From a virus (lineage: Duplodnaviria; Caudoviricetes), in the IMG/VR virus record IMGVR_UViG_3300028412_000003: a stretch of DNA of 64,000 bases; one strand, 5' to 3'. Positions within the stretch are counted from its first letter, which is position 1. The number at the start of each line of letters is the position of its first letter. Position numbers and translations under genes: made by a program. Of this stretch, positions 1 through 48,543 are shown in pieces. Under the pieces are notes generated by a model. That model was not told where the DNA came from. It worked only from the letters and a program-made list of their open reading frames with translations, and did not search any database.

Positions 1-53
1 GCTCGCACTTATTGCGTGCAGACTGCTACACGTTACATGGGATCGATGCGCGC

Positions 54-234
54 ATAAAAACAACTTAAAAGTGTGCAACAAATAGTTGCACACTTTTTAG
101 TTTAAAAAATTCTCGAGGGGTGGGGGGGATCAGCCGCCCGATAAAAACAACTAAAAAGTGTGCAACAAATAGTTGCACTGTGCAACAAATAGTTGCACAC
201 TTTTTAGTTTAAAAAATTCTCGAGGGGTGGGGGG
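54..234. repeat. Two ~75-bp direct repeats (54-128, 141-234) carrying three copies of the palindrome GTGCAAC-AAATA-GTTGCAC
   Basis: Read directly. Copy 2 has an internal 20-nt tandem duplication (159-178, 179-198). Copy 1 has a 13-bp stem AAAAGTGTGCAAC/GTTGCACACTTTT at 67-97. Both copies end in GGGGTGGGGGG. Confidence 0.95.
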
Positions 235-348
235 CATATAAAAAGAATTACAACTATAGCGTGCGCAAGCGCAAAGCCTAATTAATCTAATTAAATCTTT
301 TTAATCTTTTAAATCAACGCTTTTTAAAAATGGGGTGAGTTAGAATCA

Positions 349-498
349 CCACCCAGAATTGATAAGTACTTCTACTAAAATTTTCTGCGGGCTATTTTTT
401 TAATCCTGCAGACCCCTTTTCGGGCCACCCAGAATTGATAAGTACTTCTACTAAAATTTTCTGCGGGCTATTTTTTAATCCTGCAGACCCCTTTTCGG
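349..498. repeat. Near-perfect tandem duplication of a 75-bp unit (349-423, 425-498)
   Basis: CCACCCAGAATTGATAAG...GACCCCTTTTCGG occurs twice; copies differ only by T7 vs T6. Confidence 0.95.
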
Positions 499-581
499 AC
501 CGGCCCGAGGAATTTTGGTGCCGGCATGCGGCCGGTTGAGACTGGGCTCCGGCCGGCGAACCACACAACCAAGTTAATAAC

Positions 582-610
582 TTGACAACCAAGTTTGATT
601 CTGCTACACT
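582..610 (+). promoter_or_regulatory. sigma70-type promoter TTGACA-17-TACACT
   Basis: Perfect -35, 17-nt spacer, near-consensus -10; points into the + strand small-gene array. Confidence 0.7.
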
Positions 611-652
611 GTAAAAACAGTTAAAGTTATAGCTCAAGAAAGAAAAATCACA

Positions 653-1039
653 GTGTCAATTACAGAAACAATCCGGTGCCAGCACCGACAGAACCGACCG
701 ACATGCGGGCCGTCCCCGACCAAGGTTGAACCGTCTGATTCAAATATAATCACCGTTCAAACTCTTGATCAGCCGGTGCGGGCGGTCGATCGCCGGTTCG
801 AGAAGCAATCGGTGCAGCCGGGCGGCGAGCGGTTCGAGAAGCAATCGGTGTGGCGTCCGAGGGTGAGCGGCCGGTTCGGTCTCGGCGATGACGGGCCGTG
901 GCAAAAATTCGCAATCCGCTTCCGCTGTCGCGGCTTCGCAGAAAGAACGGTTGTCGGCTGGGTCAGCACCGGGTTCAACTCAAGAAGTCGGCTTTGTAAA
1001 ACAAACTTCCACAGTATTCATGTCGATAGAACCGATTGA
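653..1039 (+). CDS. Doubtful GC-rich ORF (128 aa, GTG start) with an RFEKQSV repeat
   Basis: Follows the 582-610 promoter and overlaps the next start like its neighbours, but composition is atypical for this genome and no family is recognised. Confidence 0.3.
   Translation: MSITETIRCQHRQNRPTCGPSPTKVEPSDSNIITVQTLDQPVRAVDRRFEKQSVQPGGERFEKQSVWRPRVSGRFGLGDDGPWQKFAIRFRCRGFAERTVVGWVSTGFNSRSRLCKTNFHSIHVDRTD
794..850. repeat. 21-nt direct repeat CGGTTCGAGAAGCAATCGGTG x2 (794-814, 830-850)
   Basis: Read directly; period 36 nt. Confidence 0.9.
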
Positions 1040-1253
1040 TCTTTGGACACATCTTTACCAAAATCATTGTGATCCACGTCGAGAATTTAATATCGATCAA
1101 AGTTTAAAATTTCGTTATCCGGATATAGTTAGAGTAAATGTAATGAACGATCCCGGGCTACGTCAACGATTAGACCTTGCCGTTCATTTTAAGAATGAAG
1201 TAGCAGTAACTAAATTTTTGATGACAAGCGAATTATCTGTTTATACAAGGTGA
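1020..1253 (+). CDS. Small paralogue-array protein (HFKNEVAVTKFLM)
   Basis: ATG at 1020 inside track ORF 888..1253, where AT-rich composition begins; shared C-terminal motif. Confidence 0.7.
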   Translation: MSIEPIDLWTHLYQNHCDPRREFNIDQSLKFRYPDIVRVNVMNDPGLRQRLDLAVHFKNEVAVTKFLMTSELSVYTR

Positions 1254-1262
1254 GGAAAGACT

Positions 1263-1561
1263 ATGGTAATTAATTTATATTTCACTTCTCCTTCTTTTCA
1301 AAAAGAAGATCTTGAAGACATTACTTTTCAAGATGCAATCACTCCACAAGCAGATCAGCTAACAGAAAAATTATCGGCCCCGCAATTTAAAGTCTATTCA
1401 GGTGCTAATAGGAAAAAAATCCTGAAACGTTCTTTTATCCTTGGACGAAAGTAACCGTTCATGATCCACAGCTCGAATCGATTTTTTGGTTATTGGCTGG
1501 TTCTTTTATATCAGAAGACAACTTGGTTTTTATAAGAAGGGAAGAATTTTTAGATGAATAA
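1263..1561 (+). pseudogene. Frameshifted paralogue-array gene (shift at A7, 1413-1419)
   Basis: SD GAGGA + ATG 1263. Adding one A gives ...RKKNPETFFYPWTKVTVHDPQLESIFWLL...EEFLDE*, ending at 1561 over the next ATG. Confidence 0.6.
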
Positions 1562-1865
1562 CAATTTTGATAATTTGTTTACAGTCGAAGAACCAAGTGA
1601 GGATAGTTGCATCACGCTTCCTATTAATAATAAAGATCTTAAATTTTCTTTATCCAACATGTGGAGAATAAAAGCATTATGCAAAGATTTAAAAAAGGGT
1701 GTTGGAGAAAGATTTGATATTTCATATGACGTGATCAGGATTGACAGGCGTGGCGTAGCAATTTTTAATATAACAGTAGAATATGAAAAACCAAGTGATG
1801 CTACTTTGTTTTGGATGAAATTTAACAGTCTTGACCGACAATTGTTAAATCACTTTGTAAGATGA
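1554..1865 (+). CDS. Small paralogue-array protein (EYEKPSDATLFWM)
   Basis: ORF track, coupled start/stop, shared motif. Confidence 0.8.
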   Translation: MNNNFDNLFTVEEPSEDSCITLPINNKDLKFSLSNMWRIKALCKDLKKGVGERFDISYDVIRIDRRGVAIFNITVEYEKPSDATLFWMKFNSLDRQLLNHFVR

Positions 1866-2167
1866 AAAAAGATCGTTTTATAACTTTGAGAATAAGTCCC
1901 TGGGATATGTTACCATCCATGGCGGAAGACGAGTTAGCTCAAGCTGTTGTTGACCAATTGAGCCAAGCGTCTGGTCCTAGTTATTCTATATCCTATCATA
2001 AATTTTCTACTTGTAAATATATGATCGGTGGTAACGAATTAAACCTTCAAATTTACACTATTCTTGTATATTTTGAACATGAACACGAAGAAAGTTTATT
2101 TTGGTTACGCGGCTCCGAAGTATTAAAAAGAATAAAATTTATAAAAAACGATGAAAATTGTATCTAG
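1862..2167 (+). CDS. Small paralogue-array protein (YFEHEHEESLFWL)
   Basis: ORF track, ATGA overlap, shared motif. Confidence 0.8.
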   Translation: MKKDRFITLRISPWDMLPSMAEDELAQAVVDQLSQASGPSYSISYHKFSTCKYMIGGNELNLQIYTILVYFEHEHEESLFWLRGSEVLKRIKFIKNDENCI

Positions 2168-2185
2168 TAATCGTCAACGTTTCTC

Positions 2186-2214
2186 TTGACTCTTGTTTTA
2201 GAATCCTGCATAAT
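2186..2214 (+). promoter_or_regulatory. sigma70-type promoter TTGACT-17-CATAAT
   Basis: Near-consensus hexamers with 17-nt spacer in the gap before 2248. Confidence 0.7.
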
Positions 2215-2247
2215 ATAATACTATAGTTATAAAAGAGGTTTTGTTTT

Positions 2248-2490
2248 ATGGATTATTCAGTTACAATTAGCCTTTCTTTTACAGAAGTCTTAGAGTGGAT
2301 AGAGGTTAACCTCTATCCACTCGTTAACGACTACAATTTTAATCGTTTGTCCAAAAAATTAAAAAAACAGCATCCTTATATAATTAAAATAACAAATGAC
2401 GCGCCTTATGAATTTCAAATCTTCTTTAAAAAAGAAAGTGATGTTACTTTCTTTTCTTTAAAAAATACGATTGGAGAAATAATAAAATGA
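2248..2490 (+). CDS. Small paralogue-array protein (FFKKESDVTFFSL)
   Basis: ORF track, SD GAGG, shared motif. Confidence 0.8.
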   Translation: MDYSVTISLSFTEVLEWIEVNLYPLVNDYNFNRLSKKLKKQHPYIIKITNDAPYEFQIFFKKESDVTFFSLKNTIGEIIK

Positions 2491-2750
2491 TAACTCAAAG
2501 ATTGTTAGTTCCTCCAATGGTGTTTTTAGAGTACATCTATTCAATTCCAGATGCCTGTCATAATTTTACTCCAGATGAATTTAGCCAAAAATTTATAAAA
2601 GAACATCCTGTTGTCGATAAAATGTATTATATTATTGATAATAATGTCAATAATTTCAACGAACCACATATTTTTGAATTGTCTTTCAAAAAGAAAAGTG
2701 ACGTTACTGTCTTTTTATTAACAAGCTCATATGGTAGGTATTTAAAATGA
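2487..2750 (+). CDS. Small paralogue-array protein (SFKKKSDVTVFLL)
   Basis: ORF track, ATGA overlap, shared motif. Confidence 0.8.
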   Translation: MITQRLLVPPMVFLEYIYSIPDACHNFTPDEFSQKFIKEHPVVDKMYYIIDNNVNNFNEPHIFELSFKKKSDVTVFLLTSSYGRYLK

Positions 2751-3004
2751 AAACAGTTGTTGAATTGAAAATGACCAAACGAGCATTTGCCAAATATCAT
2801 AATTTAGCCAACGACAGATTTTATGATATACCTAGTTTTATAATCTCTTTGAAGAATCATTTTAATCTCGAACTTGTTTTTTATGAACATCAAACTGTTT
2901 ATCGCGAATACGTTTTTAAGATACATTTTGAAGAAGACATCGAGGTAACTAAATTTTTAATGATGGTTTCATTTGGGCGTTATAAAATAATAGAGGGATG
3001 GTGA
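2747..3004 (+). CDS. Small paralogue-array protein (HFEEDIEVTKFLM)
   Basis: ORF track, ATGA overlap, shared motif. Confidence 0.8.
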   Translation: MKTVVELKMTKRAFAKYHNLANDRFYDIPSFIISLKNHFNLELVFYEHQTVYREYVFKIHFEEDIEVTKFLMMVSFGRYKIIEGW

Positions 3005-3007
3005 AAA

Positions 3008-3286
3008 ATGAGAATAGAGAGAACATTAAGAGTTTTGGACCGCCTTCTGTTAGATTTAAATGATATTCCCTTTCCAAAAACTGTTCATCAATTTACAGAC
3101 TTGTTCAAAGAAACATATAAACCTTATATAGAAAGTATCAAATTTCTTCATAGTGTATCTAATCTTAAAGAAAAAAGAATTGAACATTATTTTATCGTCA
3201 TCTTTAAAAATGAAAAAAACGAAACTGCTTGTTTCTTATCAGATAAGTTGTACGGGAAAGTAATTTATGATAAAGAAAATTTTTAA
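3008..3286 (+). CDS. Small paralogue-array protein (IFKNEKNETACFL)
   Basis: ORF track, shared motif. Confidence 0.8.
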   Translation: MRIERTLRVLDRLLLDLNDIPFPKTVHQFTDLFKETYKPYIESIKFLHSVSNLKEKRIEHYFIVIFKNEKNETACFLSDKLYGKVIYDKENF

Positions 3287-3549
3287 ACTTTCTGACACAT
3301 CTAGCCTCTCTTATATTTATTTTATATTACTTTATAAGGATTCTCCTTTGGTAATAAGATTGTACTAGGATCAAAGGAGATTTTAATGAAGGTCCTCCAA
3401 ATACATTTATATATTTTTTAGAATTAACATTTGATAACGAAAAATCAATGACGATGTTTCTTTTAAGAGATATTACATTTGGGATAAAAGATATACTATC
3501 GTTTGAATTAATCGAAGACGAAGAAATTTTAAGAACCCTCAAACATTAA
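3267..3549 (+). pseudogene. Frameshifted paralogue-array gene (one extra base near 3357)
   Basis: ATG 3267 gives MIKKIFKLSD...SPLVI; removing one A continues as DCTRIKGDF...ELTFDNEKSMTMFLLRD...KH*. Confidence 0.6.
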
Positions 3550-3793
3550 AGAGATAGTTATTCCAACAGTAACAATAAAAAATCTCAATAGAGATCCATT
3601 AATAACAGAATGGAAAGAGGTTGTCTCTAAATCTTTAACCGATTGTAAGTATGTAACGTCTTTTAGGGTTAGAAAAACGATCACACTGATAGATGAAATT
3701 GAAATTAAATTTGACTCAAACGTTAAGAAGACAGCGTTTTTGCTTTCTTCTAATCTTAGTAATTGGACTGTGATAGAACATGACGATAACTAG
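3545..3793 (+). CDS. Paralogue-array protein without a canonical start (possible ATT at 3545; KFDSNVKKTAFLL)
   Basis: Open frame IKEIVIPTV...EIKFDSNVKKTAFLLSSNLSNWTVIEHDDN*; missing from the ORF track because it has no early ATG/GTG/TTG. Confidence 0.55.
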   Translation: MKEIVIPTVTIKNLNRDPLITEWKEVVSKSLTDCKYVTSFRVRKTITLIDEIEIKFDSNVKKTAFLLSSNLSNWTVIEHDDN

Positions 3794-4043
3794 AAAATTT
3801 AAGATAGTTGAAAACACTTCATTACGTACTGAAGAAATTGTATCTTTAATTTGCGAAAATAGATTTGTATATAAGGTCGCATCTAAATTACCTGGTAACT
3901 TAGGAAAAGATTCAAATAATAATTATGTTTGGTATACTTCTATAATCTTTAAAGATGAAAAAAATCTAACTGCTTATTTAATAAGTGATACAACAATTAA
4001 TGAGAAACTAAAGTCAGTTACTTTAGTGGAGGAAGAATTATGA
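3780..4043 (+). CDS. Small paralogue-array protein (IFKDEKNLTAYLI); recent duplicate of the next gene
   Basis: ORF track; close amino-acid and nucleotide similarity to 4040..4300. Confidence 0.85.
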   Translation: MTITRKFKIVENTSLRTEEIVSLICENRFVYKVASKLPGNLGKDSNNNYVWYTSIIFKDEKNLTAYLISDTTINEKLKSVTLVEEEL

Positions 4044-4300
4044 TAACTAGAAAATTTAAAATAGTTGAATCAAGTTCAGTAGATCTTATACAAATTGTCC
4101 CTTTAATTTGCGATAATAGATTTGTACATAAGGCTGAACTTTCTTCAACTGATCAGCTTGAAAGAAATAAAGATCTTAGTTTTGTTTGGTATGCTAATTT
4201 AACTTTTGAAAATGAAAAAAATCTAACTGCATACTTAATGAGTGACACAACAATTAATCAAATTTTGAAGTCGATTACTTTAGTAGAGGAAGAATTATGA
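4040..4300 (+). CDS. Small paralogue-array protein (TFENEKNLTAYLM)
   Basis: ORF track; same MITRKFKIVE start and TLVEEEL end as the previous gene. Confidence 0.85.
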   Translation: MITRKFKIVESSSVDLIQIVPLICDNRFVHKAELSSTDQLERNKDLSFVWYANLTFENEKNLTAYLMSDTTINQILKSITLVEEEL

Positions 4301-4558
4301 TAGAAATAAAACTTAAAATTAGACTTGAAAAAAACTAAAGATACCACACATCAATATTTTATATTACACAGTGCTATGTCAGAAAGATTAAAAGAATCTA
4401 AAATAGATATAATTAAAGAGATAATGCCACCAACACCAAATCCTAATTGTTTTGAGGGATATGATCCTTCATATTGGGTCTTAAAATTTAAAAATAAATT
4501 AGACCTGACAAGATTTTATCTAACAACTAATTTAAGTGATTGGATCGTAACAGAATGA
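4297..4558 (+). pseudogene. Paralogue-array gene with probable frameshift at A7 (4328-4334); KFKNKLDLTRFYL
   Basis: Coupled ATG at 4297 gives MIEIKLKIRLEKN*; deleting one A joins it to track ORF 4325..4558. Confidence 0.55.
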
Positions 4559-4601
4559 AGAAAAAATTTTAATAGAAATTTATAATAATGATATATAATA
4601 T

Positions 4602-4838
4602 GTGCTCACTAATTTCTATGTTCGTTTTCACGAACCATTAAACAACTGGCCAGGCGTAAGACTTGCTATGATAAAAAGCATAGCAAGTGAATTAAAATCT
4701 CGTGGATTCTCGGTTACTACTTTAACCGGAGATATAATTCAACTTGAGCATCAAAAACTTTCATCAAAAACTCAAGTTGCTATTATATTAGGAAGTCTTA
4801 GTCGTTACTTTAGTATAGACGAAGATACGCAAACTTAG
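4602..4838 (+). CDS. Hypothetical protein (78 aa)
   Basis: ORF track; last gene of the + strand block. Confidence 0.6.
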   Translation: MLTNFYVRFHEPLNNWPGVRLAMIKSIASELKSRGFSVTTLTGDIIQLEHQKLSSKTQVAIILGSLSRYFSIDEDTQT

Positions 4839-4994
4839 AATCTAACAAGACGTCTAAAGAGTCATGTATTTAAAAACCTGCACTTAACCAGCAATACACC
4901 GCGCTGCAATGCGCGTACAATGCTGGTGTTTGTTTTTTTGTTAAGTTATGCGCTGCGCGTATAGTGTTAAGTCTACACGCAGGACACCGTGTTA

Positions 4995-5014
4995 TAACCG
5001 GTTTAAACCGGTTA
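4995..5014. terminator. Perfect 20-bp palindrome TAACCGGTTTAAACCGGTTA at a gene convergence point
   Basis: Read directly; overlaps the helicase stop codon; terminator role inferred from position. Confidence 0.45.
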
Positions 5015-6427
5015 ATCTTCAGCATCGTAATTTTTCAAAAAATCTCTAACTTTTGAAGAACTAGACACCGCTCTTACTTTAGCTTCGGGAGCATCTTCAT
5101 TATCTGATGCTCCCGTCCGCTTTAATTTACTCAACATAGATGTACCACCACTTTTTATCCCTGCATTGATAGGAGCGTCATCATCGTCTTCTCCTAGATC
5201 AAAGATTCGAAGTGTGTCAATATTATATCCTAAATCAATATTAGTGCCAACCCCAGATGACGATCTTGTTTTCATCAACTGTAATTGATACCTTCCTCTT
5301 TCTCTCATTGCTCGAGAAGTAAAGATGCCAAATACATTATCAGCAGTTTGAATCTTACTTAACCCTCCAGATATATGAGAATGATCAAATTCAATTTCTT
5401 CAACTGCTCCTCTGTTTAACTGAGAAGCTGTAACGAAAATCATGTTTAATTCCATAGCTAGATTTCGTAGTTCTTCCGAAACATACTTGTCTTTTATGAA
5501 AAGATTCTCTGGACTAATTTTAACCGAAATAGGCATCAACAGGTCTAAGTAGTCAAGTAAGATTACATCATACTTTATTCCACCTTTTATTTCAAGTTCC
5601 TTTATATAAGCCCGAACATCATTTGCAGTCTTTCCTGATGGCATATATTTGATTTGAACGCTGCCTGATTTCTTGCCAATCATCTTAACCTTAAGTTCAA
5701 CATCATCAATGCTCTTAAAGATATCTCTACTCGGTATGTCTGTTAGCATCGAATCAAGTCTCATAGACACCAACGGCTCACTTAATTCTAAGGTAAGATA
5801 TAAAACATTTAATCCGGCCCTTGCCCAATTAACTCCAAGGTTAGCAAGGAACAAAGATTTACCTGCACCGGATGCTCCTGCAAATATATTCAATTCTCCT
5901 CGGTTCATTCCACCAAAAAGTTTTCGGTCTAATGCTTCCCATCCCGTACTTATTTGCCCATTCTTTTCTTTTATGCTTAACAATCTTCCTCTCGGGTCAG
6001 CAAAGTAATCTGTACCCATATCTTTTTGTAACCCAATTTGTACAGCCTTCTTTATTTGTTCTTCAACTGGTCCATAATCTCCTTTTTCAAGAAGTTCAGC
6101 CGAATCCATAATAGCTCGTTCTAATGCTTTGTGACGCGTAAATGTTTCAAATTCATCCATTAACCAGTCATAATGATTACTTTCTAATTGAGATACATGT
6201 CTCAAATCTGTAGAAGCTGCTGAGTTGACAATTTCAACTAACGGTAATGCATTATATTGAGTAACATAATCATTTATAAATTTTGCTGCTGGACGCAAGC
6301 GTCTATCAAAAAGTGTGTCATCAAATATATTTTGACATCTAACAAAGGTTACTGCATCAGACAGTAGCATTTCTAAATAAACTTTTTGTATATCATATCC
6401 ATAGTCTGTATTTTGTCTAGTTGCCAT
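5012..6427 (-). CDS. gp41: Replicative DNA helicase, DnaB / T4 gp41-like
   Basis: Walker A GASGAGKS, Walker B ILLDYLD, TASQLNR, C-terminal MKTRSS. Confidence 0.93.
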   Translation of the reverse strand: MATRQNTDYGYDIQKVYLEMLLSDAVTFVRCQNIFDDTLFDRRLRPAAKFINDYVTQYNALPLVEIVNSAASTDLRHVSQLESNHYDWLMDEFETFTRHKALERAIMDSAELLEKGDYGPVEEQIKKAVQIGLQKDMGTDYFADPRGRLLSIKEKNGQISTGWEALDRKLFGGMNRGELNIFAGASGAGKSLFLANLGVNWARAGLNVLYLTLELSEPLVSMRLDSMLTDIPSRDIFKSIDDVELKVKMIGKKSGSVQIKYMPSGKTANDVRAYIKELEIKGGIKYDVILLDYLDLLMPISVKISPENLFIKDKYVSEELRNLAMELNMIFVTASQLNRGAVEEIEFDHSHISGGLSKIQTADNVFGIFTSRAMRERGRYQLQLMKTRSSSGVGTNIDLGYNIDTLRIFDLGEDDDDAPINAGIKSGGTSMLSKLKRTGASDNEDAPEAKVRAVSSSSKVRDFLKNYDAED

Positions 6428-6434
6428 TCGTTAT

Positions 6435-7409
6435 TTAATTTCCCCATACACCATCAATACTAACCGGTTTACGATAATGCCAAAGTACTGCTCCAATTGC
6501 AGATCCTGGATCGCCCGGGTATTGAGGTACATGTACATTATACCACTGTTTTCGTATCTTGTCAATTGATCTTTTATTCATTGCACATCCACCCGTTATT
6601 GCAAGATCATTTGCTCCGGTTAATCTCTGTGTATGATATGACAGATGTTCAATTGCTGCTTCAAAAAGATATTGTGTGCATGAAGCAAATTGTTCTTTCG
6701 TAAAGCCGTCATCCTCTTTCCAGGATCTACATCCTCGATGAAGGTTGGTTTTCAATTTTACAAAAGGTTTTCTGTTCTGTAGTTCAAATATATCATCTAA
6801 CATATGTTCTAATAATTTTCCTCCCTTAGTCTTGTCTGTGTCTCTAATTTCTGCTATTTTATATTCATCTTGTTGAGGTATCAATCCCATACGTTGAGTC
6901 ATAGCCGAATAAAACAATCCAAGACTATGAGGATAACCTTGAGAATATACCTTTTTTAGGGTCCATTCTTTAGTGCCTTTCCAAATAGATATAGTGTCAA
7001 ATTCTCCAATAGAATCTATCACCAAAACTGCACACTCTGGATTTTCTTGTGTATAATATCCATAAGCGGCATGAGACTGATGGTGTAATGTATATGTGAT
7101 AGGTGCTGTTGCATATGAGAATTTTTGAGGTCTATTGTTGATAAATCCCTGTCCTGCACGTAATTGTCTGATAGATTTAAGTGGTGGATTTTCATACCAA
7201 AATATTTTATCAGGATAACCAAAAAGATCTATTGCATCCTTTTCCATGTCTGGAGATATAAAGTTGTCTCCTTTCATTCCTGAGTATTCACTTGCTAGCC
7301 GTGCCCATAATGGCCATGGCTTTTTGGTGTAAGATAATCCTCTTACACCAAAATTATGTACCGATAAACTTGCATCATGGCTTCCACCTGTTGCTCCCCA
7401 AATTATCAT
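6435..7409 (-). CDS. Carbamoyltransferase, NodU/CmcH family, N-terminal (Kae1-like) domain only
   Basis: HDAS, HHQSHAA, VIDSIGE, GGCAMN, PGDPGSAIGA; ends where the C-terminal domain would begin. Confidence 0.8.
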   Translation of the reverse strand: MIIWGATGGSHDASLSVHNFGVRGLSYTKKPWPLWARLASEYSGMKGDNFISPDMEKDAIDLFGYPDKIFWYENPPLKSIRQLRAGQGFINNRPQKFSYATAPITYTLHHQSHAAYGYYTQENPECAVLVIDSIGEFDTISIWKGTKEWTLKKVYSQGYPHSLGLFYSAMTQRMGLIPQQDEYKIAEIRDTDKTKGGKLLEHMLDDIFELQNRKPFVKLKTNLHRGCRSWKEDDGFTKEQFASCTQYLFEAAIEHLSYHTQRLTGANDLAITGGCAMNKRSIDKIRKQWYNVHVPQYPGDPGSAIGAVLWHYRKPVSIDGVWGN

Positions 7410-7417
7410 CTAATTTC

Positions 7418-7540
7418 CTATTTGTAAATGAAAGGATCTCTTTCTTGCATCTTCTTTAATCTTTTTTTAAAGGCTCTTTCTTCTTGCCACCATGTATAGG
7501 GGTAAGTGATCCATTCCCAAACCTTTTTTAAAAAAACCAT
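7418..7540 (-). CDS. 40-aa hypothetical protein MVFLKKVWEWITYPYTWWQEERAFKKRLKKMQERDPFIYK
   Basis: Translated by hand; fills the gap between primase and carbamoyltransferase. Confidence 0.6.
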   Translation of the reverse strand: MVFLKKVWEWITYPYTWWQEERAFKKRLKKMQERDPFIYK

Positions 7541-8514
7541 TTTCTCTTCCTTAATCTAATCTTTAATGGTGAATATTCAGCTGCACTGATTATGCTATGT
7601 AAAGTATATAGCCTTCCGTATCTTTCAGCTGCTGCTCCAACATCATTTATGTCAGAGTCCCATTCTGGTAAAGAAACCATCCAACCTTGATCAATTGCGG
7701 GTTCAATCATATAAGAACCTTTCTTATCTCTATCTGGTACAAATATGATATCTTTGCCTAAAGAATTGATTAACAGAGCTTGCTCATCTTTTAACTCAGA
7801 GCCAAGAAGAGCCATTCCATCTACATGTATAGCATCAATTGGACCTTCTACTAATATAGAGAAAACTCTTTTATAATCTTGTTGTTGATCAATTCCATAG
7901 ACATACCCAGGTTGTTGTTCAGAAATATATTTAAAGTTTTTCCCATCAAGAACGTCTCTAGCAGTCCATCCAACTATCTTTTTTTCATAAAAAAATGGAA
8001 TTATAAGTCGATTACGATACTGAAGATTAGGACTCCAATAAAAAGAAGTATCTTCAAGATATAAATTTCTTGAGCGCATGTATTCAACTAATTTGATTAT
8101 ATATTTGTTATCTTCACCTGACCATTCTTCTAATGGTTTTGCGTCGGGCGGAAGGTTTTTAATTTCAAACTTTGGAAGAACTGCTACTCTATTTTTGGTT
8201 ACTACTCCTTCTTTATCACGCAATAATTCAAATGCAATTTTCATTATTACGTCATCTGGTACACCTATCCATTCAAATAATTTTCTCATGCGGTGTTGAA
8301 GAAGTAATCCTTTACTCCAAGATGCTTTATATCCACAATTAAAACAATGATAGGAAACGGTGTCATCTTCCTGTCGGAGACCACCTCTTTTTTTATTATC
8401 TGCTGTTTCACCATTATGTATGCAACAAACTGCATTAAATGACATCCATCCAGACGGAGTATGTTTACGATTACTAGGAAGATATGCAATTAATGTATCG
8501 TATACTAAACTCAT
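7528..8514 (-). CDS. gp61: DNA primase (DnaG / gp61-like)
   Basis: Zn finger CCxH...CFNC; TOPRIM ILVEGPIDA and PDRD. Confidence 0.9.
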   Translation of the reverse strand: MSLVYDTLIAYLPSNRKHTPSGWMSFNAVCCIHNGETADNKKRGGLRQEDDTVSYHCFNCGYKASWSKGLLLQHRMRKLFEWIGVPDDVIMKIAFELLRDKEGVVTKNRVAVLPKFEIKNLPPDAKPLEEWSGEDNKYIIKLVEYMRSRNLYLEDTSFYWSPNLQYRNRLIIPFFYEKKIVGWTARDVLDGKNFKYISEQQPGYVYGIDQQQDYKRVFSILVEGPIDAIHVDGMALLGSELKDEQALLINSLGKDIIFVPDRDKKGSYMIEPAIDQGWMVSLPEWDSDINDVGAAAERYGRLYTLHSIISAAEYSPLKIRLRKRKWFF

Positions 8515-10073: not shown

Positions 10074-10974
10074 AACGATAATCCATTATAATGTCTGCCA
10101 TCTTTAATATCTTATCATGCCATGCAAGAACTTCTAACCATTCTTTAGGAATATTCGAATATCCATAAAATGCTCCTGCTATTTGCCCAGTTACGGCAGC
10201 AACTGTATCAGCATCGTCTCCTAAATTAGCTGCTAACAACACCGCATCTTTAAACGATTCAGTCTTTTCAACACACCAAAATGCTGCTTCTGCTGTATGT
10301 ACGACATATCCGGAAGAACTTATTTGTGCTCGGTATTTTTCAGCAACATCCCAGCGATCTTCAACTTTGGTTCCGCCTGTATCAATTATATCCCAAAGTA
10401 CTCCTCCTAGATATTCTGCCATGTCTACACAATCTGGAGATGCATGTGTAGTAATTGATTGAGCAACGGAATATTCTACTGCTTGTTTTCGAGTCTTAGC
10501 AATCATAGGAGCCGGTGCAAGTCTCATTATACCACCGTTACCAGAATCAAGTCCGTGTGTTGAACCACAAACTGGTTCAATTTGGCCGCCTTTATCAAAT
10601 TTATCAATTGCTGTTCGAGTAGTATTACCTATATCAAAACAGAGATTATTGTGAGAAAATGCACCTTTATTATACCAATCACTAAAGTTCTTAAGTATGT
10701 CAACTTGATTGATGCCTTTATAGCTAATAATAGAACGGGCTAAGGCAAGCGCCATACTTGTATCATCTGTCCATTCACCTGGTTGTAAATTAAATGCTCC
10801 GCCGCCTCTCATCCTAGTTACTGGATCGTACGTATCTCGTTCCTTAAATTCAACCGAAGTACCTAATGCATCGCCTATTGCTAATCCAATTAAGCATCCT
10901 CTACCTCTATCTTTTATACCTGTCATTGTGTTACTCTCTTTGTTAAATCTTTTTCGTTCTTTTCCTGAAAGCAA
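10066..10974 (-). CDS. ADP-ribosylglycohydrolase (DraG/ARH family)
   Basis: GLAIGDALG, GEWTDDT, GNGGIMR, GDDADTVAAVTGQIAGA. Confidence 0.93.
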   Translation of the reverse strand: MLSGKERKRFNKESNTMTGIKDRGRGCLIGLAIGDALGTSVEFKERDTYDPVTRMRGGGAFNLQPGEWTDDTSMALALARSIISYKGINQVDILKNFSDWYNKGAFSHNNLCFDIGNTTRTAIDKFDKGGQIEPVCGSTHGLDSGNGGIMRLAPAPMIAKTRKQAVEYSVAQSITTHASPDCVDMAEYLGGVLWDIIDTGGTKVEDRWDVAEKYRAQISSSGYVVHTAEAAFWCVEKTESFKDAVLLAANLGDDADTVAAVTGQIAGAFYGYSNIPKEWLEVLAWHDKILKMADIIMDYRST

Positions 10975-45934: not shown

Positions 45935-47089
45935 ATTCCACGTCTTAGCTTATATAAACCGGAACGCGGTAAAGATTATCAATTCTTTGATAAAACAATT
46001 GAAGAAATGTTTATTGTCGGCGGTACTGATGTATTTGTTCATAAGTATCTTGGACCAAAAAATCCATCTGACGAAGACGCAACAGCAGATCAACCACAGT
46101 ATGATAGTGTTAATGTCACTAACATACAGGATCTATTGTTTCTTGAGAATCGAGATAGAGATTACGAAGAGGACATTTATACCATTCGTGGAATTTATAA
46201 TGTACAAGATTTAGATTTTGACCTATCTCAATTTGGATTATTTCTCAGCAACGACGTATTGTTTATGACAATTCACATTAATAGATCTGTCAAGACGTTG
46301 GGAAGAAAAATAATAATAGGTGACGTAGTTGAGCTTCCTCATTTAATTGACGATTACGGATTAAATGACTTAGCTTATTCACTTAAAAGATTTTATGTAG
46401 TTGAGGATGTTACTAGAGCAGCTGAAGGATTTTCTCACACATGGTATCCACACCTTTATAGACTAAAACTAAAACAAATTTACGACGGTACTGAGTTTGC
46501 AGACATATTTGATAGACCGGCTGGCGAAAATGATGATACTACGTTGCGTGATGTAATGTCAATGTGTGCAAAAGAAATGGAAATTAATGCAGGAATTTTG
46601 GCTCAAGCCGAAGCCGATGCTAAAAAATCAGGATATGAAACTAATCATTACTACACTCTTGATTTAGACGAGAATGGAAAAGCAGTTATCAATACAGCAG
46701 ACGAAACAGATAGTTTTGTATCTGACGGAACGGTTGATCAAGTATATGGTAATCCTGACCGGTTGGGTTACAAAGGTTATCTAATTGGTTTAGATGAAGC
46801 ACCAAACGGAGCACCATTTGGTTCTGGTATCTCCTTTCCTACTAATAGCGCACCTGGTTCTTATTATTTAAGAACAGATTTTATGCCAAAAAGATTATTT
46901 AAGTACGACGGAACTCGTTGGGTTAATGTGGTAAGTGACGTAAGAGAAACACTTTCAAATACAGACACTCGTAAAACACAACTTGGAACGTTCATTAACA
47001 ATACTAATACTAGTGAAATTGGCGGCGAAACTATACAGGAACGTCAAAGTATCACCAAAGCACTACGTCCGCGCGCAGATAACGTATAA
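45935..47089 (+). CDS. Neck protein, gp14-like; probable ATT start at 45935 (track ORF begins 46007)
   Basis: AGGAG-7 nt-ATT, then PRLSLYKPERGKDY in frame with 46007; GDVVELPH, WYPHLYR. Confidence 0.7.
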   Translation: MPRLSLYKPERGKDYQFFDKTIEEMFIVGGTDVFVHKYLGPKNPSDEDATADQPQYDSVNVTNIQDLLFLENRDRDYEEDIYTIRGIYNVQDLDFDLSQFGLFLSNDVLFMTIHINRSVKTLGRKIIIGDVVELPHLIDDYGLNDLAYSLKRFYVVEDVTRAAEGFSHTWYPHLYRLKLKQIYDGTEFADIFDRPAGENDDTTLRDVMSMCAKEMEINAGILAQAEADAKKSGYETNHYYTLDLDENGKAVINTADETDSFVSDGTVDQVYGNPDRLGYKGYLIGLDEAPNGAPFGSGISFPTNSAPGSYYLRTDFMPKRLFKYDGTRWVNVVSDVRETLSNTDTRKTQLGTFINNTNTSEIGGETIQERQSITKALRPRADNV

Positions 47090-47100
47090 GGAGAGATACA

Positions 47101-48543
47101 ATTTCACAATTTTTTTATGATGGCCAGATTAGAAACTATCTAATTCAATTAATACGCATGTTGAGCAATTTTAAATATAAGGATGCAGGCGGCGAACATG
47201 AAATTCCTATTCTTTACGGAGACATGACACGTCAAGTAGCTAGTATATTACGAGAAAATTCAGAAAACAAAGTTCCTTGTGCACCTCGGATGGGTATTTT
47301 TATCACGGCACTTGAGCAAGATCGAGAAAATACAAGAGATCATTCGTTTGTTGGAAAGGTAAACATAAGAGAGCGTGCTTATGATTCTGACAATAATGAA
47401 TATCTTAACTATCAAGGAAAGAATTATACAGTTGAAAGGTTAATGCCAACTCCTTACAAGATGACAGTGCAAGTTGACCTTTGGACTACTAATACTGATC
47501 AAAAATTGCAGATACTTGAACAAATATTAATGATATTTCGTCCTCAAGTTGAAATACAAACAACAGATAACTATGTAGACTGGACTTCTCTCACTACGGT
47601 TAACCTTGATAGTATTAATTGGTCTAGTAGATCCGTTCCTCAAGGTATTGATGCAGAGATTGATGTAGCTTCATTAATTTTCTCTACACCAATTTGGATT
47701 AATCCGCCAGTTAAAGTTAAACGTCTTGGTGTTATTACCAATATTATTAATTCTATACATGACGAGCGCAAGGGAACAATTGAATTAGGTCTGTCAAGGC
47801 CGGAAGTTTCTGCTTATAGTGATACTGCAAGAGCAGGATCAACCGATGTAAATGGTATTAGAACTGCAACCACTAGCGAAACCGATCAATTAGTTAATAC
47901 CAATCATGAAAATTTTGATATAGTTATTAGTGGTAATACAATACAACTTGGTCAAAATGGATTGTTAAGTAATGTTAGTTGGCAAAGAGTTACTGAACCT
48001 CATCCAGGACAGTATCAAGAAGATATATCAAGAATTTATATTGTTCGTAAATTAAATACCTATATAGAAATGACGGGAACCTTTACTATTAATCCGCTGG
48101 ACGAAAGTAAAATAATAGTTAATTGGGATACTGATACCTTTCCAGACGATACAAGCATATCTGGTCCTGCCCGCAGTACCAATGCGTTTACTTCAATTGA
48201 TTATATAATTGATCCTTTAAGAACTAATCCAACTTCTCTCAAAACACCAGGTCTGCGTATCTTATTATTAGAAGATATAGGTAGTAGTGAAAATTCTTCC
48301 GGACCTACAGCATGGAAGAACTTAAATAATTCAGACTTTATAGCAAATGCAAATGATATAATTGAATGGACTGGATCTAATTGGGTTATAGTGTTTGATG
48401 CAAGTGAAAATACAGATGGATCTCTCACTTATACAACAAATCTAAATACAGGAATACAATATCGATGGGATGGTGAAGATTGGTTGTTGTCTGTCGACGG
48501 TGTTTACCCTGTAGGTACCTGGCGTCTTGAATTAAACGGTTAA
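47101..48543 (+). CDS. Tail completion/terminator protein, gp15-like; probable ATT start at 47101 (track ORF begins 47158)
   Basis: AAGGAG-7 nt-ATT, then SQFFYDGQIR in frame; IPILYG, PTPY, QKLQILEQIL..F.P. Confidence 0.75.
   Translation: MSQFFYDGQIRNYLIQLIRMLSNFKYKDAGGEHEIPILYGDMTRQVASILRENSENKVPCAPRMGIFITALEQDRENTRDHSFVGKVNIRERAYDSDNNEYLNYQGKNYTVERLMPTPYKMTVQVDLWTTNTDQKLQILEQILMIFRPQVEIQTTDNYVDWTSLTTVNLDSINWSSRSVPQGIDAEIDVASLIFSTPIWINPPVKVKRLGVITNIINSIHDERKGTIELGLSRPEVSAYSDTARAGSTDVNGIRTATTSETDQLVNTNHENFDIVISGNTIQLGQNGLLSNVSWQRVTEPHPGQYQEDISRIYIVRKLNTYIEMTGTFTINPLDESKIIVNWDTDTFPDDTSISGPARSTNAFTSIDYIIDPLRTNPTSLKTPGLRILLLEDIGSSENSSGPTAWKNLNNSDFIANANDIIEWTGSNWVIVFDASENTDGSLTYTTNLNTGIQYRWDGEDWLLSVDGVYPVGTWRLELNG

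Follow-up and report, generated by a model that had tools for sequence, protein, structure and literature searches.

A fast-evolving array of fourteen small paralogous genes with a predicted ferredoxin-like fold in an uncultured giant phage

The stretch of viral DNA analysed here (the window, 64,000 nucleotides (nt) from the IMG/VR record IMGVR_UViG_3300028412_000003; Duplodnaviria, Caudoviricetes) carries on its plus strand, at positions 1020-4838, an array of 14 consecutive small genes, M01 to M14, which lie head to tail and encode diverged proteins of 54-103 amino acids (aa) that belong to one family. The reading that we prefer, and to which we would give about an even chance, is that this is a birth-and-death family built on a small ferredoxin-like scaffold in an early, plastic part of the genome, and that its products serve as early binders of host or competitor proteins. 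A sequence-only reading of the same DNA had described about 13 consecutive paralogues of 77-103 aa that share one C-terminal motif. The array is real and its genes are indeed consecutive; the count and the lengths had to be revised, since M14 was added through an orthologue in a related phage, the true range starts at 54 aa, M02 and M09 are frameshifted and M10 is without a canonical start.

The family is established by leave-one-out profile searches, in which a hidden Markov model (HMM) made from the other twelve of M01-M13 (or from all thirteen when M14 was tested) was scored against the tested member together with 294 further open frames of the window, each 50 codons or longer, 295 sequences in all. 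Twelve members, M01 and M03-M13, each rank first of the 295, with E values from 4e-3 to 8e-13, and the best unrelated frame usually lies above E 0.02. Neither M02 nor M14 was recovered among the 295 sequences. M14 is nevertheless tied to the family through its orthologue on a related contig, L011 (34% identity over 73 residues, E 1e-14), which matches other members of an array on that contig, and those in turn match M03 and M04. For M02 it is the C-terminal motif, and nothing beyond it, that argues for membership; its tail, read in the -1 frame, is 43% identical to that of the L011 member L011c over 28 residues. The six copies of the motif quoted in the sequence-only reading all lie in frame on the plus strand, at 1188 (M01), 2425 (M05), 2927 (M07), 3430 (M09), 3948 (M11) and 4487 (M13). 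A loose form of the motif matches 13 times on the plus strand between 1188 and 4487, at spacings of 230-350 nt, and only twice elsewhere in six frames of the 64 kb, a count that is circular, having been obtained with a pattern written from the members themselves, and that serves to illustrate the regular spacing.

Two types of tail can be told apart. M02-M04 and the L011 members end in E-x-P-x-x-E-[ST]-x-F-W-[LM], and M01 and M05-M13 in F-[KE]-x-E-x-x-x-T-x-F-L-[LM]. A further division sets M09, M11 and M12 against M10 and M13, and the alternation of these subgroups in the order M09-M10-M11-M12-M13 suggests that a two-gene unit was duplicated. M11 and M12, previously taken for a recent duplicate at 3780 and 4040, turn out to be only 57% identical as proteins and 75% as DNA, with a synonymous divergence (dS) of about 0.35. 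They are the closest pair, and between other pairs of members synonymous sites are saturated; all copies are old and strongly diverged. Because none is recent and there are no near-identical repeats (dS runs from 0.35 to saturation), the earlier description of the array as an accordion does not fit in its strict sense.

Eleven of the 14 frames (M01, M03-M08 and M11-M14) are intact and start with ATG, GTG or TTG. M01 (1020-1253, 77 aa; leave-one-out E 1e-4) lies in a frame that is open from 888, with the ATG at 1020 taken as its start. M02 (1263-1561) would be about 99 aa long, the size of its neighbours M03 and M04, if a -1 shift at the A7 run 1413-1419 is read through, and its FW-type tail lies in that -1 frame. 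M03 (1554-1865, 103 aa; E 4e-3), which overlaps M02 by 8 nt, and M04 (1862-2167, 101 aa; E 4e-3) are likewise of the FW type. They are followed by M05 (2248-2490, 80 aa; E 7.5e-4), M06 (2487-2750, 87 aa; E 3.6e-6), M07 (2747-3004, 85 aa; E 8.5e-5) and M08 (3008-3286, 92 aa; E 1.7e-5). M09 (3386-3549, about 54 aa; E 1.9e-5) is truncated at its N-terminus: its ATG at 3386 is preceded by a good Shine-Dalgarno site, but the frame meets a stop 11 codons on, and the motif stands in the -1 frame past the T6 run 3414-3419, where a -1 shift would be needed; even when read through it is without the N-terminal half, and it is closest to M12 (46% identity over 37 aa). M10 (3545-3793, about 82 aa; E 6e-4), closest to M13, has an open frame of 86 codons in which there is no ATG, GTG or TTG. 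Its start may be the ATT at 3545, which overlaps the stop of M09 (ATTAA) in a geometry like that of the ATGA overlaps. M11 (3780-4043, 87 aa; E 3e-11) overlaps M10 by 14 nt, and then come M12 (4040-4300, 86 aa; E 8e-13), M13 (4325-4558; 77 aa from a TTG or 60 aa from the ATG at 4376; E 4e-3) and the diverged last member, M14 (4602-4838, 78 aa from a GTG).

That most members are translationally coupled, as had been proposed, is borne out by stop-start overlaps of the ATGA kind at 1862 (M03/M04), 2487 (M05/M06), 2747 (M06/M07) and 4040 (M11/M12), with overlaps of 8, 5 and 14 nt elsewhere; four gaps, of 80, 99, 24 and 43 nt, set off the groups M01-M04, M05-M08, M09-M12, M13 and M14. The two frameshifts, in M02 and M09, are both of the -1 type and both fall at homopolymer runs, and they may represent decay, a switchable site or low-level slippage. 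The truncated 63-aa product of M02 is identical on three contigs, which argues that its frameshift is not the error of one assembly, with the qualification that these contigs may have read sets in common. Scans of other contigs for the exact pattern of the A7 site gave no match, and may not have covered the phage's own records.

What the members are likely to look like is suggested by an AlphaFold2 model of M12 made with a 20-sequence family alignment (predicted local distance difference test score, pLDDT, 78; predicted template-modelling score 0.67). It consists of a strand (residues 2-10), a helix (16-24), two strands (31-35 and 48-56), a second helix (59-75) and a final strand (79-84), which is the b1-a1-b2-b3-a2-b4 order of the ferredoxin-like class. 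Structural comparison (Foldseek, VIA-align) gave the N-domain of MJ1480 as the best superposition (3mgj_B; Z 8.9, root-mean-square deviation 2.9, 82 of 86 residues), and the top 50 matches are all ferredoxin-like. Among these neighbours are ribosomal protein S6, ACT domains, the dimeric alpha-beta barrel or ABM domains and the C-terminal domain of PheRS beta, which share the order of secondary structure and the overall fold with M12 (Z of 7-9 over 80 or more residues); they differ in that identity is 5-16%, Pfam gives no match and no functional residues are shared, so that the resemblance is one of fold only. Indeed, as the Z scores stand barely above the usual background of 7-8, they name a fold class and nothing more. 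None of the neighbours of M12 in a library of viral structures, all of them small, uncharacterised phage proteins, scores better than E 2.6e-3, and a search of the ESM Atlas returned only unrelated matches of low value. For M01 (pLDDT 74) the model has the b2-b3-a2 core, but strand 1 is replaced by N-terminal helices and the final strand is missing, and its Foldseek matches are insignificant, though again ferredoxin-like. On these models the C-terminal motif is made up of strand 3, helix 2 and the capped turn between them, which form the hydrophobic core, with the conserved Phe, Thr/Ser and Phe-Leu positions as core and helix-cap residues. The proposal that one small fold was amplified and diversified thus finds support both in the leave-one-out statistics and in the two models, that of M12 being ferredoxin-like and that of M01 matching it in part.

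If the core is kept, the surface appears to be where the members part company. Their isoelectric points (pI) span 4.6-8.7, which shows that the members have kept no charge property in common. For M11 and M12 the overall ratio of nonsynonymous to synonymous divergence (dN/dS) is 0.84, and the replacements cluster in 28 codons (dN 0.90, dS 0.21; in the remainder dN 0.11, dS 0.44), leaving a dN/dS of 0.24 outside this variable patch, which covers the start of helix 1, strand 2 and the loop to strand 3. We also considered an old centre whose flanks had been homogenised, against which the lower dS inside the patch argues.

A search for relatives of known function came back empty in every collection that we tried. 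Pfam gave no family for the 17 members scanned (10 + 7), including no match to RRM, ACT or ABM/DABB; PHROGs gave none for 10 members, NCBIfam and the defence proteins of PADLOC none for all 20 sequences, and a profile search of the PDB with the same 20 nothing below E 0.1. In an exhaustive profile search of 1.84 billion (1.84e9) representative proteins the only matches were nine proteins of the window itself and a eukaryotic chitin-binding repeat protein, the latter a match that we regard as spurious. Only the phage's own proteins came back from a word-index protein search, and blastn against a phage collection found no match. An iterated HMM taken over 80 helicase-linked IMG/VR loci found members in L011 and in none of the other 79, scans of IMG/VR and metagenomes for M14-like proteins led to the L011 contig only, no member was present in four relatives of 256-357 kb (one of them rated complete), and HMMER found none in the phages PA5oct, Phosso and Atu_ph07. 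A weak recurrent match at 46944-47117 of the window proved to be an out-of-frame stretch and not a family member.

The L011 array has seven members in the equivalent position, convergent with the helicase gene, at 53% G+C. Between the two arrays M14 and L011e are clear orthologues and M02 and L011c probable ones, and there are no others. That so few orthologues remain while the helicases are 81% identical means that turnover is much faster in the array than in the core, and the evolution of the array is, from the sequences compared, fast and lineage-specific. Just downstream of the array in both phages stands a 26-nt block with a G+C-rich hairpin, CGCGC-TGCAAT-GCGCG (4895-4920, plus strand), which is possibly the end of the transcription unit; it is 92% identical to positions 12700-12725 of L011, and the flanking DNA is otherwise unalignable.

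Even so, the family is probably not fully isolated, judging from comparisons with two sets of proteins of similar size in related phages. One is B1, a conserved, single-copy protein of 94 aa found in related giant phages (L103, 1471-1755, which is about 145873-146157 of G004:C1, and L104-L139), known from 36 IMG/VR loci at 66-100% identity and weakly matched by the array and PA5oct profiles alike. B1 has an invariant tail, I-G-F-E-E-P-K-E-A/S-S-F-F-L, and adjoins a 392-aa protein; no orthologue was seen in the 86-kb record of the phage itself. The other set is formed by gp209, gp210 and gp237 of PA5oct, which have a W-C-x-E-N helix followed by an F-x-F...A-x-x-F-x-L tail. In hhalign the PA5oct trio matches B1 well (probability 90.5%, P 1.4e-6), and for the array against B1 the probability is 26% (P 7e-4), with a score, 23.2, that none of 60 column shuffles reached (9.6 +/- 1.8; reversed alignment 9.0). 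The direct comparison of the array with the trio is insignificant, at a probability of 1.3%. Like the array proteins, the trio and B1 combine, at the same size, a helix with a conserved Trp, an F-x-F strand, an acidic turn and an F-x-L helix; they differ in being single or few per genome where the array has 14 copies. The W-[CI]-x-E-N motif of helix 1 (P0017-P0019, B1) was not found in the array, where E-N is absent, and a Trp stands at about its place in some members (M03, M05, M10 and M14). A common origin of the array, B1 and the PA5oct trio is plausible, not established. A more ambitious version, which we think unlikely, would make the array a repertoire of one binding scaffold, with its core kept and a patch (about residues 11-19 and 30-48 of M12) evolving fast, within a much larger, unannotated superfamily of early proteins of jumbo phages, PA5oct-like ones among them; the single-copy B1 and PA5oct gp209/210/237 would then be ancestral, arrays of 8-50 copies would have arisen independently in more than one lineage, and the frameshifts in M02 and M09 might be contingency switches.

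As to expression, a near-consensus sigma70-type promoter (TTGACA-17-TACACT, with TG upstream) lies on the plus strand at 582-610, 410 nt upstream of M01. It is the last of nine TTGACA-N17-TA(C/T)ACT sites, all on the plus strand, in the 11.5 kb that end at the array (-10320 to 610 in window coordinates; about 74800-85730 of G000:C1; L009), where 0.04 would be expected and none occurs on the other strand; most of the nine are followed by a conserved start region resembling GTAAAAGTAAACAGCA. With this promoter family upstream, the array forms the distal end of a block with several promoters, which the host polymerase presumably transcribes, and the 582-610 site gives the array the upstream near-consensus sigma70 promoter that is expected of an early unit of the T4 type. 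Within the array the 80-nt gap between M04 and M05 contains one promoter-like site (TTGACT-17-CATAAT, 2186-2214, plus strand; 10 of 12 matches). The earlier claim that host-type sigma70 promoters drive these genes can accordingly be kept for the clear promoter family upstream, but not for an abundance of local sites, since sigma70-like sites in 1-5100 are not enriched (25 against 20.4 +/- 5.4 in shuffles). The T4 late-promoter motif TATAAATA is not enriched in the array region, and Rfam gave no match over 1-5100.

Several features of the surroundings may be put on record here. The leader, 611-1019 (409 nt, 56% G+C), has long frames open on either strand and, at 774-845, a 36-nt direct repeat; its folding energy is not unusual (z -0.71) and Rfam gave no match in it. 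At 62-209 are three copies of the palindrome AAAAGTGTGCAAC-AAATA-GTTGCACACTTTTT, each flanked by runs of T or A on both strands; they are terminator-like on both strands and precede the 582 promoter. The minus strand of the AT-rich core has five sites similar to the nine promoters, at 6565, 11127, 14158, 19219 and 34284. Upstream there is a second paralogue family, lineage-specific, with four copies of 87-147 aa (711-974, 2560-2928, 7500-7943 and 10112-10468, minus in L009) and the N-terminus M-A/T-I-T-N/R-K/T-T-F-D/N-T-A-G-T/V-S-V/T-L-N/H-G-V, for which PHROGs gave no match; a tRNA-Met lies at L009 7381-7457.

The source record has 86,270 bp, of which the window is positions 11414-75413 on the minus strand, and its CheckV completeness of 24% implies a genome of roughly 360 kb. 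Next to the array, on the minus strand, lies the gene for a DnaB-type helicase (5012-6427), an enzyme that shares 53% identity with its counterpart in Pseudomonas phage PA5oct and 51% with the one in Agrobacterium phage Atu_ph07. About 600 IMG/VR contigs carry a helicase about 70% identical to it and a single one, L011, reaches 81%; these helicase relatives mark the source as an uncultured giant phage from a large environmental clade, and by sequence it is distantly related to PA5oct. The array has 26-30% G+C, the core about 33%, the upstream block 45-49% and positions 601-900 56%, with a sharp break inside 1-1000, near position 1000. This break is probably real: two contigs share a 121-aa frame that runs across it, and the AT-rich part has promoters in the style of those upstream. 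The L011 contig has 45-53% G+C despite the 81% helicase identity, a large compositional shift among close relatives. The array proteins are identical on 3-4 contigs (JGI, Logan and ENA assemblies), the longest of 228 kb. A chimera with an L011-like phage is ruled out by the same junction frame on two contigs and by the lack of DNA similarity beyond core genes.

How, then, might such an array have come about, and what is it for? We envisage that one gene for a small stand-alone domain was repeatedly duplicated in tandem, and that the copies then went through long divergence and some decay, in which they kept the hydrophobic core and came to differ in length, in net charge and over the remaining surface. 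The proteins would most likely be made early by the host RNA polymerase and serve host takeover or counter-defence as small binders, with a separate host or competitor protein as the target of each. We infer the early timing, the binding and its targets; that host or rival proteins are the most likely targets follows by analogy with T4 Dmd and TifA (PMC9391042) and with expansions in jumbo phages (PMC7824862, PMC13359090). Among the latter, Bacillus phage G has about 35 copies of a zinc ribbon as a lineage-specific expansion (Iyer et al. 2021, PMC7824862), and there, too, one small domain, its function at most guessed, has been multiplied in a single giant-phage lineage; the present fold differs in being ferredoxin-like and without metal ligands, and its 14 copies stand in one coupled array and are far more diverged. 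The T4 dmd-tifA(-adfA) island encodes small early proteins that inhibit defence systems and undergoes segmental amplification (Srikant, Guegler and Laub 2022, PMC9391042). In layout the array resembles it: proteins of 60-85 aa, an early host-type promoter, a plastic region and tandem amplification by recombination. The T4 genes, however, are not paralogues of one another, and amplifications seen in the laboratory are identical and unstable, whereas the array copies are ancient and diverged. Recent near-identical repeats, which change in copy number under selection and mark the poxvirus K3L 'genomic accordion' (Elde et al. 2012, as related in PMC9391042) and T4 tifA in that account, are not what the array has.

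Several points weigh against this reading. No homologue of known function was found in the sequence and profile searches run; a generic ferredoxin-like fold is uninformative on function, and the M01 model shows only part of it; the 582 promoter is 410 nt from M01, with a single further good promoter-like site within the array; the variable patch in M11/M12 was picked after the alignment had been viewed, so that its statistics are inflated and suggestive only; and the two frameshifted members, the truncated one and the one that lacks a normal start raise the possibility that some of the array is no longer in use and is decaying. If that last point held for the array as a whole, it would be largely non-functional, a set of leftover duplicates drifting to loss in a recombination-prone, plastic region, as its broken members, the M11/M12 dN/dS of 0.84 and the absence of the family from most relatives would all allow. 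We think this very unlikely, since eleven frames are open in spite of synonymous saturation in most pairwise comparisons, stop-start overlaps and Shine-Dalgarno sites have been retained along with the core motif, dN/dS falls to 0.24 outside the M11/M12 patch, and M14 is conserved between two phages. Still harder to credit, to the point of being barely tenable, is that the motif is a compositional accident of AT-rich DNA, from which peptides rich in K, N, E and F are expected, or that the array of 26-30% G+C came to adjoin a 45-49% block through a chimeric contig broken near 1000: the leave-one-out scores stand far above those of the 294 other window frames, the L011 array carries the motif at 53% G+C, the junction-spanning frame is on two contigs and members are on 3-4 contigs from three assembly sources, and both compositional parts have the same type of promoter.

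The remaining alternatives grant the proteins a function and dispute which. It is conceivable, if doubtful, that the paralogues cooperate in the phage's own biology, as a hetero-oligomer or a packaged or structural accessory set whose ratios translational coupling would fix. Most neighbours are indeed tightly coupled, pairing by way of the sheets is common among ferredoxin-like domains (as in the dimeric alpha-beta barrel proteins among the structural matches), and the T-even internal proteins, diverged small paralogues that are packaged, provide a precedent. Such a set would sit uneasily with an array whose copy number and identity differ almost completely between phages with 81% identical helicases, which is absent from the near-complete relatives examined and tolerates broken members, and which lies behind sigma70-type promoters with no enrichment of TATAAATA. 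Small regulators that bind nucleic acids or ligands in the manner of RRM, S6 or ACT, tuning transcription, translation or metabolism during infection, are brought to mind by the structural neighbours (RRM, ribosomal protein S6, ACT and the anticodon-binding domain of PheRS); we give this only a small probability, given that there is no conserved basic surface, that pI varies from 4.6 to 8.7, that the conserved positions are those of the hydrophobic core or a helix cap, that Pfam shows no RRM or ACT match and that Z scores of this size are what a common fold alone would give.

Taken by itself, the array adds a further unannotated family to a kind of multigene expansion that the literature already describes, and large phages are known to amplify families of small genes. 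Yet a large share of giant-phage genomes consists of small genes without an assigned function, and nothing marks the sites of rapid adaptation more clearly than arrays such as this one. The present array furthermore provides a test set for binding: 14 naturally occurring variants of one foldable scaffold (80-100 aa) with a patch that may be variable, and a sister array in a related phage for comparison. If the weak link to gp209, gp210 and gp237 of PA5oct is true, the question of binding could be addressed in a cultured Pseudomonas phage.

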